Positions 12,952-63,864 of a stretch of DNA of 64,000 bases are shown here, one piece after another. The first letter of the stretch is position 1. The number at the start of each line of letters is the position of its first letter. The stretch is from positions 4,883 to 68,882 of the forward strand of contig JASEJC010000001.1 of assembly GCA_030016755.1 (NCBI GenBank), written 5' to 3'. Under the pieces are notes generated by a model. That model was given only the letters and a program-made list of their open reading frames with translations. It made no database searches and had not been told where the DNA came from. This DNA is from Candidatus Hodarchaeaceae archaeon. Its GTDB lineage: Archaea > Hadarchaeota > Hadarchaeia > Hadarchaeales > Hadarchaeaceae. Position numbers and translations under genes: made by a program.

Positions 12952-14277
12952 CTAAATTCCCGTACTAAACTGTACAGGCAATTTTTCTGGCTCCATCCCC
13001 AGCTTCGCTTGGGCTACAAGCCCATCCACTGGGGACTGCATCTGCCAGCAGTCGGCGGGGACGTGCCTCGCCCCATCCTTAGCTATGTTCCAGCTCGCCA
13101 CCAAGTGACGGCTGGCCTCGAACCCGCAAGCTTTGCACCTGTAGGTGTGCCCATTCGGCCTGTTGTACCGGCCACATATCGGGCAGTCCTTCGACTTGTG
13201 GTAGTTGCTGACCTCCACCGTTGGCAGTCCTTGTCGCGCCACCTTGTACTCGGCATAGAACTGGAACTTTCGGAAAGGCCACTGGTTGAGCCTCCTGCGC
13301 ATGTCCTTCCGCAGGGCCCTGCCGTTCTTCGACTTGCGCTTCGAGCGCATGAAACCACGAATTCCCTTGATACCCCCGAAGGTGACCGCGACTCGCTCTC
13401 GCTCGGCAATCTTGGCGATCTGTTTGCTGACAACGTGTAGGATCTGGTTAGTGCGGTTGCGCTCCCTTCGCCAGTACTTCGCCTTGAGCCTGCGCTTCTG
13501 CACCGGTCGCTGCGGTGGCGTATCCAGCTTTCGCTGAATCGATTTGCGCTTGAGCTGTGACGAGTGCCTTATCGCGGGGAGCTTTGAGACATCGAGACTG
13601 ATGTGTTTTGGCTGTTCGTTTGGCTTCAGGATGGTCAAATCAACGCTCTGCTCGTTGATGTCTATGCCGCAGATGCCCTCCGTTGGCCTCGGTTCCACCT
13701 CGCACTTGAACGGCACAAAAACATTGGCTCGATCTTTGAATAGCGAGATCGTGATTTCCCCGACTTTCTTTTTACCTTCCCGCCAGTCGCGGAGGTATCG
13801 GAGTACGTGGTGCTCGGTCACCACGAGCGGAAGCCAAAGGTACTCCCCGCGACGGATTCTGATTTGAATCACATTTCCGCAGAACCTGCAAACGCCAGTT
13901 TGGTTTCTATCGCCCCAGAGTTCTAGGCGCATTGTCCGCGCTTTGTAGGCGGGTGGCTTCTCCGGGTTCGCCTGTCCTTGGCGACAGAGCTTCCGCCACG
14001 AGCGGAGCGTCTGCGTAGCCATCTGCCCGGCCGAGTGGAACCAGTGCGTCGCTAGATCAAAGCGCGACTTCCACTCCTCGTAGGCGACGTGATGTAGCGA
14101 GGCGCGGGAAGTAACCTTATGTTCGAGGCACTTCTGGATGTAGAAGTTAACCGACTCCGCGAACTTGCCGAGGAGATCGCCCAGCAGCTCGCGCTTTCGC
14201 CCAGTCAGCGGAGGTGTAATGAATCTAGCGGAGCTGACGGACTGCACATCTTCTACCTCCGATGCGTTTTCTACCAT
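12952..14277 (-). CDS. TnpB-like (IS200/IS605 OrfB family) protein with apparently degenerate RuvC motifs II and III
   Basis: GICGIDINE (RuvC-I), zinc ribbon CPICG...CKACG and C-terminal WNIA are present. The expected IVxEDL reads VAVTFGGI, and the expected RDxNAAxNI reads RHLVASWNI. The track ORF extends to GTG 14412. ATG 14277 (MVENAS) lies about 45 nt downstream of a TATA-like box. Confidence 0.85.
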   Translation of the reverse strand: MVENASEVEDVQSVSSARFITPPLTGRKRELLGDLLGKFAESVNFYIQKCLEHKVTSRASLHHVAYEEWKSRFDLATHWFHSAGQMATQTLRSWRKLCRQGQANPEKPPAYKARTMRLELWGDRNQTGVCRFCGNVIQIRIRRGEYLWLPLVVTEHHVLRYLRDWREGKKKVGEITISLFKDRANVFVPFKCEVEPRPTEGICGIDINEQSVDLTILKPNEQPKHISLDVSKLPAIRHSSQLKRKSIQRKLDTPPQRPVQKRRLKAKYWRRERNRTNQILHVVSKQIAKIAERERVAVTFGGIKGIRGFMRSKRKSKNGRALRKDMRRRLNQWPFRKFQFYAEYKVARQGLPTVEVSNYHKSKDCPICGRYNRPNGHTYRCKACGFEASRHLVASWNIAKDGARHVPADCWQMQSPVDGLVAQAKLGMEPEKLPVQFSTGI

Positions 14278-14320
14278 TTTCTGCCCAAGCCACTTTGGGG
14301 GAGGGGGGTCTCCGAAAGTA

Positions 14321-14338
14321 ATATATAAACTATTTAAA
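14321..14338 (-). promoter_or_regulatory. TATA-like box (minus strand CCTTTAAATAGTTTATATAT) upstream of the TnpB-like ORF
   Basis: AT-rich box in an otherwise GC-rich spacer, about 45 nt upstream of ATG 14277. Confidence 0.4.
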
Positions 14339-14449
14339 GGGCTCCCAGGCACGACCTGATTGTCTTCTAGAGCCCATTTTTGGTGCCTTTTTTCGCCATT
14401 TTTCAGGGGCACCGAAAGTATTCCCCGAATGATACGGTCTGGTACGGTT

Positions 14450-59676: not shown

Positions 59677-60749
59677 CCCGTGATCACGCGGATATAACCA
59701 CGAAACTCACGGTCGAGCTCTGAGTCGCCAGTGTCGACCTTCAGCGTGGGGGTGAGCGAGAGCTTGTGGGGGGTCGCCAGCACCCACACATTTTCTTTCC
59801 CGACGCACCTCACCACCTCTGGGCTGAGCTGTTGGTTCCCCCGTCCGAGGATGAAGCCCTGCTTGCCTATGGGGCTCACCACTATCGTCGTCGGTTTGCC
59901 CCTGATGGCCTTGAGGATCTGCCGCTCGTTCACGTCACGCGCGAGCAACTTGTAGTCTTTGACCAAGTCGACCCCGAGCAGCGTCGAATCGTAAATACCC
60001 AGCTCCTCTGCCACTGCCCTAGTCGTAGTGCCTGGGCCAAGTACGTAAATACGTCTTTTTTCCATAAGCTCAACCACCCCGCGAGCAATCGCCTTCTGAT
60101 CAGCGAGCTCGAAGCCGGAGCTGCCCTCCTTCGTCGCCTGCATCATGACTGGCTCGTAAGGCACGTTAGCGTAACCCAAGAGTTTCGCGACGAGGCGGTT
60201 CTCGCGGTAGGCTTCCTCATCTATATCCATCACCTCTGCCTGCTGAAGCGGTAGCCCCTCACGTAGGAAACGGGCCGCGATTTCGCCCGCCGCTTGGGGG
60301 GTATTCGCAAACACCGCCGAGTGCATTTTGACGCCCGTGGGAATTCCCAGAATTGGTACGAGCGCATCTACGGCTTTTATCGTGTCGGCTGCCGTACCGT
60401 CTCCTCCGGCGAAAAGGATAAGATCAACCTTTTCCAGAAGCATCTCCTTCGCCGCGCGCTTCGTGTCCTCGGCGGTCGTCTTCCCAGAGGTTATCTTGCC
60501 AATCACCCTGACCTCCAGCCCCGCCGCCTCAGCCTCGTCCGCTCCCATCTCCGCGGGATATGTCAGAAGCTCGAACTTCGCCATGTGGTGCTTGAGCACG
60601 CGCAATGCCTCGACTGCCCGCGCGGGTGCTACTGGTTCGGCTCCAAGCTCCCGTGCCTTTGCTAAGATTTCTGGGCTATCTGTGCCCTTCAGGCCAACCC
60701 TGCCGCCCATGCCTGCAATCGGGTTGACAATGAGACCTAGCTTTTTCAT
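59643..60749 (-). CDS. ATP-NAD kinase-family protein (COG3199-like)
   Basis: [21 protein letters not shown] and FAGGDGTA. The ATG overlaps the gcvPB stop (ATGA). Confidence 0.75.
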
Positions 60750-62251
60750 TTCTTCGCCAATTTACGATACATCCGCCAGCTCAAAATAGGTTCGCGGGAG
60801 GCCTTGACCTCGTCCAGCCTAGCGATCGCAGTAGCAGTGGGGGCCGCCTGCAGCTTCTCCGGGTCCGAGCGCGCCTCTTCAGCTATCTGCTTCAACGCTT
60901 CTATAAACTGATCAAGTTCCTCCTTGGTTTCCGTCTCGGTCGGCTCGATCATCAGCGCCTCGGGGACTATCGGCGGGAAATAGTAGGTGGGCGCATGCAT
61001 CCCGAAATCAAGCAGCCTTTTAGCCACGAAGTGTGCCCTGACCCCATATTTTTTCTTCAACGGCTCAGCGCTGAAGACGACCTCGTGCTTGCAGGGGCCG
61101 CTTGTGTCGAACTTCAACTCATAGCCCTCGACTTTCAGCAATTTTCGCATGATGTAGTTTGCGTTGAGCACCGCGGCCTCGCTCACCTCCTCCAGCCCCT
61201 CGGCGCCCATCAGCAAGATGTAAGCGTAAGCCTTCACTAGCACCCCGAAGTTACCATAAAAGGATTTGATCTTTCCAATTGAGTTTGGCCTGTTGTAGTC
61301 CAGGTAGTAGCGCTTTCGCCTGCGGTCGTACTCGATCACCGGGACTGGTAGGAACTTCTCAAGCTTTCGAACGACCCCTATGGGACCTGCCCCCGGGCCC
61401 CCGCCGCCGTGAGGTGTGGAAAATGTCTTGTGGAGGTTGAAGTGGACGATGTCGAAGCCCATGTCCCCCGGGCGAGCCTTTCCCAAAATTCCGTTCAGGT
61501 TCGCACCATCGTAGTAAAGCAGGCCCCCGACCTTGTGGATCGCCTCCGCAATCTCCAGTATCTCGTCCTCGAACAGCCCCAGCGTGTTTGGGTTCGTCAG
61601 CATGAGGGCCGCTGTCCTATTTGAGACAGCCTCACGCAATGCCCCTAAATCAACTCGGCCACGGTTGTTTGAGGGCACGACTACGACATTGAATCCTGCC
61701 ATCGCTGCGCTGGCGAAGTTCGTGCCGTGGGCAGAGTCCGGAACGATCACCTCCGTGCGCTTCGACCCCGTCGACTTGTGGTATGCACGCACGAGCAGCA
61801 TGCCCAAGAGTTCGCCGTGGGCCCCTGCCGATGGGTGCAGACATACCCGCGAAACTCCCGCTATCTCTGCAAGGTGGCGCTCGAGCCTATACATCAGCTC
61901 CAAAGCACCTTGGACCGTTTCTTCAGCTTGGTATGGATGGATATGCGCCGCCCCGTCCAAGTTAACCAGCTCGTCGCATACCTTCGGGTTGTATTTCATA
62001 GTGCAGGAGCCCAGTGGGTAAAACCCAGAGTCGACGCCATAGTTCATCTGCGAGAGCCGCGTATAGTGCCTAACCACCTGCGGTTCCGACAGCTCTGGTA
62101 GTTCAAGTGAGGTGCGAGTGAGCTTCTCAGGAATTTTCACGCGGGCGGGTGCCCTTGGCAGCGAGGCCCCCATCCGGCCAGCCTTGCTGAGCTCAAATAC
62201 CAGCGGTTCCAAGCACCCTTCTCTGGCCCAGCGCGCCTGACGGTACGTCAT
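60746..62251 (-). CDS. gcvPB: Glycine dehydrogenase (aminomethyl-transferring) subunit 2
   Basis: [31 protein letters not shown] and the PLP-lysine context [16 protein letters not shown]. Confidence 0.93.
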
Positions 62252-62402
62252 CTAAAACACCCCCCTGCTTTAGCTGTGAGAAGCCTGAGTCTCTGTTTCC
62301 CGAGAGGGGCGGCCCAGTCAACGGCCGCGTCTTGTCCGGTGATTGGAGTCGGCGACACTTGTATCACCATGAGGGACAAGCCCTGCCCTTCAGAGCGGGG
62401 TA

Positions 62403-62457
62403 GTTGACCTGTGAAAGTCTTGTATAGTGCCCTGACAACCTGTGGTTCCGACAGCTC
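62403..62457 (-). pseudogene. Degenerate 55-nt duplicate of the gcvPB 5' coding region (copy of 62042-62095) inside the gcvPA-gcvPB spacer
   Basis: Hand alignment gives about 44 of 55 positions identical with one 1-nt indel. The copy encodes ELSEPQVVR then, after the indel, HYTRLSQVNY, versus [19 protein letters not shown] in gcvPB. Confidence 0.6.
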
Positions 62458-62475
62458 AATGAGGCGTACATAAGT

Positions 62476-63864
62476 TCACCCCTTGCCCCCAACTGCCCGG
62501 GCTGCGGCCTCCGCGAGCCTGTCGATATCCCCCTTCGTGTGCAGCTCGGTGGTGCAGAGAAGAGCCGTTTCACCCAGCTTCGGGAACTCGCCGCGAACCG
62601 GTTTGCCGCCTTGGATCCCTTGCTCGAGGAGCTTGGCATTGAACTTCTCGATCGTCAGTTTTGGTTTCGTGCACCTAAGCGTGAACTCGTTGAAGTGGGG
62701 CGCCTTGAAAATCGGCGCTTTCAGTCCTCCGATGGTGTTCAGCCGCTTCATCGCGTAGCTGGCGTTCGCCGCGCAGGTCTCCGCCAGCTCACGGAGCCCC
62801 TTCGGCCCGAGCGAGGTCAAGTAGATCGCCGCCGTGACCGCGCACAGCGCCTCGTTCGAGCATATGTTCGACGTCGCCCGCTCCCGCCTGATGTGCTGCT
62901 CGCGCGTCTGCAGGACCATCGCGAACCCGCGCGTCTTCCCGTCAAGCGTGGTCGTCATCCCCACGAGGCGGCCTGGGAGCTGCCTGATCAGCTTCTGGTC
63001 GTCGCGGCAGGCGAAAATGCCGAGCGTCGGGCCACCAAAACTCACGGGATTGCCCAGCGGCTGCCCCTCCCCTACCACGATGTCAGCACCATAATCGCCT
63101 GGGGCCTTGAGCAAGCCGAGCGAGATCGGGTTGACGCCGACCACGAAGAGCGCCCCCTTCTTGCGAGCGGCTTCAGATATCTCATCCACTCGCGTCTCCA
63201 AGAACCCCAAATAACTGGGATTTTCGACGTACACCCCCGCAACATCCTCGCCGAGTTCCTTGCGGAGCTCCCCCATATCCAACTGTCCCGTGGAACGGTC
63301 ATACCCCACCTTGACCACTTCTAGACCCGGACCCGCCGCGTAGTTTTGAAGGACCGAAAGACGCTCCAGGGAGATCAGCTCTGGCACGATGAACTTTCGC
63401 CTCCCTGTCACGCGGGCACACATCAGCGCGGCCTCCCCCAGCGCGGTCGACCAGTCGTACATCGAGGCGTTCGCGACCTCGAGACCCGTGAGCTCACAGA
63501 TAAGGCTCTGGTACTCGAACAACGCCTGGAGCATCCCCTGGCTGACTTCTGCCTGGTAGGGGGTGTATGATGTTAAGAATTCGGCACGTTGAGCCAGCGA
63601 GCGGACGTGAGCTGGGACATTATGGGGCCAGACCCCGCCGCCGATGAAAGATGGCATTTGGGTGAATGGCCTGTTTTTGGAGAGCATTGCCTGAACATGG
63701 CGCTTGACCTCGAGTTCCGACATCGCGGGGGGGAGCTTCAGCTTACGCTTGGGGCGAACCTTGGATGGGATGTCTGCGAAAAGTTCGTCGATGCTCACGA
63801 CTCCAATCTCACGCAGCATCTCCTCCCGAATCTCCCGCGTGTTCGGGATGTATGGGTGACCCAT
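62476..63864 (-). CDS. gcvPA: Glycine dehydrogenase (aminomethyl-transferring) subunit 1
   Basis: HPYIPNT...FLTSYTPYQAEVSQGMLQALFEYQ, 462 aa. Confidence 0.93.
   Translation of the reverse strand: MGHPYIPNTREIREEMLREIGVVSIDELFADIPSKVRPKRKLKLPPAMSELEVKRHVQAMLSKNRPFTQMPSFIGGGVWPHNVPAHVRSLAQRAEFLTSYTPYQAEVSQGMLQALFEYQSLICELTGLEVANASMYDWSTALGEAALMCARVTGRRKFIVPELISLERLSVLQNYAAGPGLEVVKVGYDRSTGQLDMGELRKELGEDVAGVYVENPSYLGFLETRVDEISEAARKKGALFVVGVNPISLGLLKAPGDYGADIVVGEGQPLGNPVSFGGPTLGIFACRDDQKLIRQLPGRLVGMTTTLDGKTRGFAMVLQTREQHIRRERATSNICSNEALCAVTAAIYLTSLGPKGLRELAETCAANASYAMKRLNTIGGLKAPIFKAPHFNEFTLRCTKPKLTIEKFNAKLLEQGIQGGKPVRGEFPKLGETALLCTTELHTKGDIDRLAEAAARAVGGKG

Follow-up and report, generated by a model that had tools for sequence, protein, structure and literature searches.

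Why are gcvPA (glycine dehydrogenase subunit 1) and gcvPB, two genes that normally adjoin or overlap, separated by 224 nucleotides (nt) in one archaeal genome? The question arises in a 64-kb stretch of a metagenome-assembled genome (MAG; contig JASEJC010000001.1), hereafter the window, within which all positions are numbered. A preliminary description of the spacer had offered two explanations, the scar of a rearrangement or a cis-acting element. The scar is right in outline, being a clean insertion of a decayed element together with a gcvPB fragment tied to its right end; the riboregulator is not supported. We conclude, with a probability of roughly 0.8, that the spacer is a transposition scar made up of a decayed IS200/IS605-type (TnpB) element and a fragment of gcvPB, and not a dedicated regulatory RNA.

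The gap itself (62252-62475) is real, as the coordinates of the flanking open reading frames (ORFs) establish. In the four closest relatives, whose GcvPB proteins share 91% (L081), 89% (L082), 82% (L001) and 77% (L003) amino acid (aa) identity with that of the window, the two genes overlap by 4 nt (ATGA) or lie 4 nt apart. Base-by-base alignment with these four places a clean extra 224 nt at the window junction, so the spacer is a lineage-specific insertion. Across 78 loci the distance between the genes was estimated at mostly about -4 to +13 nt, as had been supposed, and it exceeds 100 nt elsewhere only in L029 (119), L038 (174) and L052 (1742). The long spacers of L038, L029, L060 and L072 were considered as kin of the window spacer and rejected, their sequences being unrelated. 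That of L038 (2549-2722, from a Thermoplasmatales MAG) consists mostly of about four copies of a 21-nt tandem repeat, CTTCCCTAACCCCTAACTTCT, and in L052 about 1.7 kb separates gcvPA from gcvPB. When L046, L049 and L073 were matched to GcvPB by tblastn, the match stretched over 300-800 nt of DNA beyond the expected length, suggesting insertions in or beside the gene.

The window GcvPA shares 89% identity with the GcvPA part of L081, and PF02347 is present in the gene calls of its relatives. The window GcvPB aligns with its relatives from residue 1 and is 100% identical to a MAG protein at NCBI (P0001) and 91% identical to a second (P0002); its nearest relatives are mostly from Hadarchaeota MAGs. 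P0001 and L002 are labelled ‘Candidatus Hodarchaeaceae’, an Asgard lineage, at NCBI, and the nearest GcvPB and TnpB relatives belong to Hadarchaeota/Hadesarchaea; the label may reflect a mix-up.

What was inserted? A metagenome scan with a 20-mer from the spacer, CCGGACAAGACGCGGCCGTT, returned eight loci, five of which share 75-81% identity with ~ 130 nt of the spacer (blastn); a scan of viral contigs with a spacer 20-mer returned nothing. In four of the five aligned loci, a tnpB gene or its 3′ part adjoins the match and reads towards the element (reverse-complement orientation). Locus L085 encodes a TnpB of 420 aa with a Cas12f1-like_TNB domain (PF07282, E = 2.6e-19), the last 41 residues of which match window positions 62278-62400 on the + strand (tblastn; 58.5% identity over 41 aa, E = 6.6e-7). 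Because tnpB adjoins the matching DNA and the TnpB C-terminus is recognizable within it, the conserved block of the spacer comprises the tnpB 3′ end and the right end (RE) of an IS200/IS605-type element. Searching with the L085 TnpB retrieved a tight family (77-83% identity) whose members are named TnpB or transposase in Hadarchaeaceae and Hadesarchaea MAGs at NCBI. The host range agrees, in that both the closest named TnpB proteins and the nearest relatives of the window GcvPB come from Hadarchaeota MAGs.

Nine further element loci were added after the TnpB family search, and both ends of the window element could be fixed against its relatives. A profile of the family RE matches the window remnant with E = 1.8e-35 (nhmmer), and the window RE is 65-77% identical to nine elements over 135 nt. 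All ten sequences share the terminus ...GGGGTAGTTGAC and their flanks diverge from the next base on, which puts the window terminus at 62408. The position of the RE region relative to tnpB in L085, L086, L088 and L091-L094 agrees with that of the window remnant. At the other side, family left ends (LEs) start with CTAAAACACCCCAAGGAGACCCCGTGCTTTAGCTGGGGGAGG, and the window LE (CTAAAACAC...CCCCCTGCTTTAGCTG) aligns with those of L096 and L094 at a score that none of 500 shuffles reaches. For six of seven family LEs, the alignment score beats all 500 shuffles; for that of L093, two of 500 reach it. The relatives carry an LE hairpin, CCCCCTGC-TTTA-GCTGGGGG, the 3′ arm of which is mutated to GCTGTGAG in the window. 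As in other IS200/IS605 elements, an adjacent motif lies 5′ of the LE, there are no terminal inverted repeats, and there is no target-site duplication: the flanks, GTCAT before the LE and CTGTG after the RE, are not duplicated.

Since only the last 41 codons of tnpB are left, we file the element as a deletion derivative rather than a functional insertion sequence; it encodes neither TnpB nor the Y1 transposase TnpA. No tnpA was seen in the fetched loci, and no further copy of the element was found in the window or in 82 gcv loci. A second solo mini element, 233 nt long and without tnpB, occurs at L089 5636-5868. Its deletion end points differ from those of the window element, which argues for decay in place and not for a propagated mini family. 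An ilvE-like gene takes its last five codons and its stop from the RE of the L089 element (…DYVE/STTPP, stop), the LE of which abuts the ATGACC start of the next gene. A single hydrocarbon metagenome sample (ERZ922794) is the source of both L082, the gcv relative with 89% identity, and L093, which has a full-length element before rpS17. The features of the locus are listed in Table 1.

Table 1. Features of the gcvPA-gcvPB junction, with positions in the window
Feature	Position	Strand	Basis or remark
gcvPB	60746..62251	-	501-aa ORF, intact, full length
Resident counterpart of the copy, within gcvPB	62043..62095	+	TTCAT (62043-62047, complement of Met69 ATGAA), then copy-homologous sequence
Transposon-adjacent motif GTCAT on LE flank	62247..62251	+	reverse complement of ATGAC, the gcvPB start codon + 2 nt
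Internally deleted IS200/IS605-family (TnpB-type) element, 157 nt	62252..62408	+ (antisense to gcv operon)	RE profile, blastn, LE alignment
LE terminus, CTAAAACACC (10-12 nt deleted) CCCCTGCTTTAGCTGTGAGAAG	62252..62283	+	alignments to LEs of L091-L094, L096, L098
Shine-Dalgarno-like GGGGGGTG	62258..62265	-	6 nt upstream of gcvPB ATG; encoded by LE terminus
tnpB remnant, last 41 codons (ending PESLFPERGGPVNGRVLSGDWSRRHLYHHEGQALPFRAG, stop), overlapping omega-RNA-like scaffold	62278..62400	+	tblastn of L085 TnpB
Hairpin GCGGCC-N8-GGCCGC (second hairpin of the preliminary description)	62309..62328	+	100% of cells paired in 10 family members; one compensatory pair
Long hairpin CTTGTCC...GGACAAG with inner GGTGAT/ATCACC stem (first hairpin of the preliminary description)	62331..62380	+	outer stem, 98.6% of cells paired
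Subterminal RE hairpin (CCCTGCCC/GAGCGGGG), then terminus TAGTTGAC	62381..62408	+	terminal five bases TTGAC in 9/10, CTGAC in 1/10
gcvPB-derived fragment, about codons 53-68, 1-nt insertion	62409..62457	-	ends at CAG of Gln68; blastn E = 1.2e-8
18 nt directly after the gcvPA stop	62458..62475	-	read from the sequence; no significant match anywhere
gcvPA	62476..63864	-	462-aa ORF; TGA stop at 62476-62478

Does the spacer, as was also proposed, act in cis on the gcv messenger RNA (mRNA), as a structured element by which translation of gcvPB is uncoupled from, or tuned against, that of gcvPA? The mRNA strand does form hairpins (-48.3 kcal/mol for a 135-nt part), two of which, CUUGUCC...GGACAAG and GCGGCC...GGCCGC, had been pointed out before and are both in the minimum-free-energy fold, and a Shine-Dalgarno (SD)-like motif precedes the gcvPB ATG. 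The entire spacer, however, is no more stable than shuffled sequence (z = -0.03; 94 of 200 dinucleotide shuffles fold as well), and it is absent from all other gcv loci examined. In Rfam 15, the only hits at E ≤ 10 were H19_2 (E = 0.11) and HEARO (E = 6.5), each scoring far under its gathering score; the HEARO hit, on the gcv-sense strand and thus the wrong one, is noise. No covariance model of a known cis-regulatory RNA family, including the glycine riboswitch and leaders, matched meaningfully.

The conservation of the helices points elsewhere. Two of the three hairpins first described recur in transposon copies among unrelated genes, and in the alignment of family members (only ten related sequences) the three helices of the RE are paired in 97.1% of cells, with five compensatory pairs. 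None of 500 shuffles reaches the observed covariation score, and controls in which the partner strand was slid drop to 38-52%. The subterminal hairpin (helix 62381-62400) has compensatory changes in four of its eight pairs. Several helix positions are U-G pairs on the tnpB strand, among them one position of the outer stem of the long hairpin in four of ten sequences. The tnpB strand has the lower consensus energy (-37.1 kcal/mol, as compared with -25.5 kcal/mol for the gcv-sense strand), and it folds better in all ten sequences. Because U-G pairs and energies alike favor the tnpB strand, the first two hairpins of the preliminary description are the mirror image of an RE/omega-RNA-like structure. 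This structure, conserved and covarying on the tnpB strand, lies at the tnpB 3′ end, stops at the RE boundary and is followed by flanking sequence in the guide position, as would an omega RNA.

One further feature of the mRNA strand might be read in favor of regulation. Two small ORFs of 37 and 40 codons (62252-62478, - strand) tile the spacer through stop/start overlaps (gcvPA TGA, 4 nt, ATG; then ATGGTGA; then ATGA), and the gcvPA frame is open past its TGA for 74 codons, until it meets the TGA within the ATGA where gcvPB starts. Such an ATG relay arises in only 0.9% of dinucleotide shuffles, but the plain open frame arises in 9%, and the pattern was recognized post hoc. We rejected both the relay and read-through of the gcvPA TGA, which are superfluous given the transposon. 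Taken with the absence of the spacer from other gcv loci and the preference of the helices for the opposite strand, a cis-acting mRNA element is very unlikely.

Where does the gcvPB copy come from? It is present as described: spacer nt 19-75 in mRNA sense match 62095-62040 at 80.7% identity over 57 nt with one indel, ELSEPQVVR and HYTRLSQVNY can be read in two frames, and in a blastn search of the spacer against the window the copy is the one significant second match. Its limits, drawn before at 62403-62457, needed to be moved. Positions 62409-62457 are true gcvPB homology, whereas 62403-62408 (GTTGAC) are the transposon terminus. The copy thus begins at 62409, the next base after the RE terminus (...GTTGAC, then CTGTGAAAGTCTTG), and the resident counterpart begins at 62048, the next base after TTCAT (...TTCAT, then CTGCGAGAGCCGCG). 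The offset between copy and resident site is 361 nt, with the homology boundary exactly 3′ of TTCAT. ATGA/TCAT sites make up ~ 0.4% of positions, so the coincidence of the copy boundary with both the RE terminus and TTCAT is unlikely to be due to chance.

Right-end RNAs of ~ 150 nt are on record that take their last ~ 16 nt from the flank, and the donor joint consists of the motif plus the flank (PMC8612924); a donor joint of motif plus right flank is also described in PMC10055086. Because the homology starts at the RE terminus in the spacer and directly after TTCAT in the gene, as such a joint implies, the copy is best read as the RE flank of an insertion at Met69. A transposon that merely inserted beside a copy made by ordinary local duplication or slippage would explain the copy less well. 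Partial duplications do happen without mobile elements, and a relic of the gcvPB start may make up the first 18 nt of the spacer, but a duplication of this kind would not be expected to end base-exactly at the RE terminus and at a resident motif as sparse as TTCAT. We regard this origin as very unlikely. The rest of the spacer (nt 77-224) has no similarity to gcvPA, gcvPB or any other part of the window; decayed gcvPB or gcvPA was considered for it and discarded, as local alignments to the window, L081 and L082 genes were no better than shuffles, and similarities found by eye were dropped.

These observations fit the following history. A TnpB-only IS200/IS605-family element lies on the strand opposite to gcv, immediately 5′ of the gcvPB start codon, where ATGAC of the ancestral gcvPA-stop/gcvPB-start junction provides, as its reverse complement, the adjacent motif NTCAT. 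A second insertion, at the TTCAT of Met69, would have given the 49-nt gcvPB-like copy as RE flank. Recombination between element copies at these two sites, 204 nt apart and on different chromosome copies, could then have produced the order gcvPA, gcvPB′ (up to codon 68), element, intact gcvPB. Excision of an element carrying its right flank, followed by re-insertion at the start-codon motif, would yield the same product. Later deletions would have removed tnpB and most of the gcvPB′ fragment (most of codons 1-52), which also gained a frameshift. What remains is a 157-nt derivative in which 32 nt of LE are joined to the final ~ 130 nt of the element (tnpB 3′ codons, omega-RNA-like scaffold, RE hairpins and, as terminus, GTTGAC). 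A mutated start of the old gcvPB fragment may account for the first 18 nt of the spacer (GTGAACTTATGTACGCC versus ATGACGTATCGCC; GTGAACTTAT... versus ATGACGTAT...).

The same precision bears on whether the spacer could be a product of misassembly, such as a path wrongly joined across strain variants and a repeat. The genome is a MAG, and the copy is nearer to the allele of another lineage than to the resident one. Both junctions are biologically precise, however (motif to LE, RE to flank), as a deletion derivative the element is unique, the copy has its own indel and substitutions, and there are no long shared k-mers at the junctions. An artefact is hardly credible.

Could the remnant instead still work? 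On the + strand, the gcvPB fragment directly flanks the RE, which is the position where a TnpB guide would be read. An orphan omega RNA transcribed from this strand, with a gcvPB-derived guide (CUGUGAAAGUCUUGUAUAGU), might then bring a TnpB encoded elsewhere, or a nuclease-dead relative likewise encoded elsewhere, to the gcvPB site flanked by TTCAT and cause repression or cleavage. Consistent with this, ~ 130 nt of scaffold upstream of the terminus are kept with their helices intact, and the resident site retains its TTCAT. Domesticated TnpB repressors have reportedly been described and count in its favor. PATE-like (palindrome-associated transposable element-like) mini elements that encode trans-acting omega RNAs are also described (PMC10055086). 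A working guide is disfavored by its mismatches to the resident gene, five in the first 13 positions, and by a homology of 49 nt, which extends far past a guide of ~ 16 nt, as plain flanking DNA would. Also lost is the interior LE module, which has TATA-like boxes and may be the tnpB promoter, and no cognate tnpB occurs in the window. We also considered whether the resident gene has escaped guide targeting. The four codons beside TTCAT all differ from the copy, yet 5-14% of gcvPB segments have as many lineage-specific changes, so that the cluster of synonymous changes in the target is not significant and the idea was set aside. A functional orphan RNA is distinctly unlikely.

Several observations weigh against the transposition scar, or at least against the history outlined above. 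The copy is 88% identical to the L081 gcvPB and 81% identical to the resident gene. When changes are polarized with L081 and L082, about six fall on the resident gene, all synonymous, and about three on the copy (two at third positions, plus the indel). Three of nine on the copy is unlikely for a neutrally drifting fragment (binomial p = 0.005-0.025), although the numbers are small. As the copy is nearer to L081 and has few changes of its own, its history also needs a second allele or later recombination of the resident segment. Wholesale replacement of gcvPB by a foreign gene was rejected, because gcvPA and gcvPB are equally diverged from L081 (aa identity 89% and 91%; synonymous codon differences 36% and 35%). 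No relative with a simple insertion at either site, start-codon motif or Met69, was found, and no intermediate of the proposed two-site recombination turned up. The LE remnant is short (32 nt) with a degenerate hairpin, the first 18 nt of the spacer have no significant match, and no cognate tnpB or tnpA lies within the window. A tnpB-like gene does occur at 12952-14412 (-), with 26% identity to the L085 TnpB and a different RE.

That tnpB-like gene lies between hydrogenase/complex-I-like genes and is without the LE terminus and RE of the gcv-spacer family. The region 14285-14427 shares with the family an interior LE module, a duplicated TACTTTCGGTG plus TATA-like boxes (nhmmer E = 2.8e-35). 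GcvPB proteins that start at Met69 (P0113 and P0096, beginning MNF/MNYG...) were tried as candidate Met69 insertions, and P0113 was rejected as a gene-calling artefact, since L100 4298-4500 encodes the full GcvPB N-terminus in frame, overlapping the gcvPA stop.

How could an insertion directly before gcvPB be tolerated? By separating gcvPB from the gcvPA stop, it would have abolished stop-start coupling of the two genes. The SD-like GGGGGGUG noted upstream of the gcvPB ATG is indeed there, and it is the transposon LE that supplies it. The LE terminus reads outward as GGGGGGTGTTTTAG followed by ATG. The gene would now be translated from this motif, and the insertion may have been tolerated because the LE would provide it. 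In the window, SD-like 4-mers are enriched upstream of ORFs (35% versus 18% in the background).

This arrangement recurs across the family. We compared 11 independent insertions (L085, L088/L095, L089, L091-L094, L096/L097, L098/L099 and the window, 62249-62252), and in ten of them the LE abuts the ATG of a gene on the opposite strand. Genes at the abutted starts include rpS17, an aminoacyl-tRNA synthetase gene, a gene for a fumarase subunit and a prephenate-dehydrogenase-like gene, and for L092, L093, L095, L096 and L098 the database gene calls begin at exactly the base that the LE abuts. The motif flanking the LE is GTCAT in four insertions, TTCAT in five, ATCAT in one and TTCAC in one, so NTCAT in 10 of 11, the reverse complement of ATGA starts. 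First starts of long ORFs make up ~ 1.3% of the ATGA sites in the window, which is the chance expectation, and the start-codon pattern has P = 8e-6 even if 25% is assumed. A G-rich motif reading outward 5-7 nt before the abutting ATG (GGGGTG, GAGGTG, GGGTGA, GGTGAT) is clear in ~ 8 of the 11 insertions and weaker in three, e.g., GGGGGC. Nothing specific to TnpB was found in the literature on a TCAT motif or on the targeting of start codons.

Judging from these sequences, the elements may survive at, or target, sites directly before ATGA starts since the LE keeps the gene translatable. A stronger version, to which we would give somewhat less than even odds, is that this TnpB family is specialized for landing exactly before ATGA starts, perhaps with an outward SD-like GRGGTG 6 nt from the LE end. 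The host gene would remain translatable and the element could persist in operons even before essential genes (rpS17, the aminoacyl-tRNA synthetase gene, gcvPB). The gcv spacer would then be one decayed example, and the gcvPB copy the record of a second hit at an internal ATGA (Met69).

The window element itself is of a known kind, a decayed IS200/IS605-type (TnpB) element with a target-site fragment, and the more interesting by-product is the family-wide link of LEs, ATGA starts and an outward SD-like motif. The anomalous gcv gap is explained without a new regulatory RNA, and the explanation predicts that gcvPB translation now relies on a transposon-supplied ribosome-binding site and not on stop-start coupling. 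For annotation, the implication is that ‘structured’ intergenic spacers beside partial gene copies can be decayed IS200/IS605 ends whose structure belongs to the other strand. The locus also keeps a forensic record: motif and LE on one side, and on the opposite side RE with flanking DNA from a second motif site. It documents that TnpB-type elements have rearranged a conserved operon in Hadarchaeota-like archaea. The association of LEs with start codons across the family can be tested experimentally.

So, how does the window element compare with known systems? Mini (PATE-like) elements that encode omega RNAs are described among the ISGst elements of Geobacillus stearothermophilus (PMC10055086). 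Like them, the window element has no protein-coding gene, keeps the LE and RE of a tnpB-carrying family including the omega-RNA region, has the family motif on its 5′ side, and lacks terminal inverted repeats and a target duplication. Unlike them, it looks like an in-situ deletion derivative and not a member of a propagated mini family, with no second copy in the window and a degenerate LE hairpin. TnpB elements of the ISDra2/IS608 type (PMC8612924) likewise have an RNA-like structured region that overlaps the tnpB 3′ end and the RE, flanking sequence in the guide position, and a donor joint defined by the motif 5′ of the LE and the RE flank. The window family differs in its motif, NTCAT and not TTGAT or TTAC, and in its archaeal (Hadarchaeota-type) hosts, and the window element in its deleted tnpB and in left and right flanks that derive from two motif sites 204 nt apart. 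The pentanucleotide TTCAT is known as the motif of ISGst5 (PMC10055086), but the nuclease of that element is IscB, with a HEARO-type RNA upstream of the gene, whereas the window family has TnpB. In contrast to TldR-type domesticated TnpB proteins with their guide RNAs, the window element adjoins gcvPA and gcvPB and no nuclease-dead TnpB homologue; the only tnpB-like gene in the window, the 26%-identical one, is 48 kb from the spacer. The IStrons, which combine an IS605-type element with a group I intron (PMC10690162), are likewise IS200/IS605-family elements with a feature that limits the cost to the host gene. The window element has no intron, and the mitigation proposed here is instead an LE with an outward SD-like motif and insertion exactly before ATGA starts.

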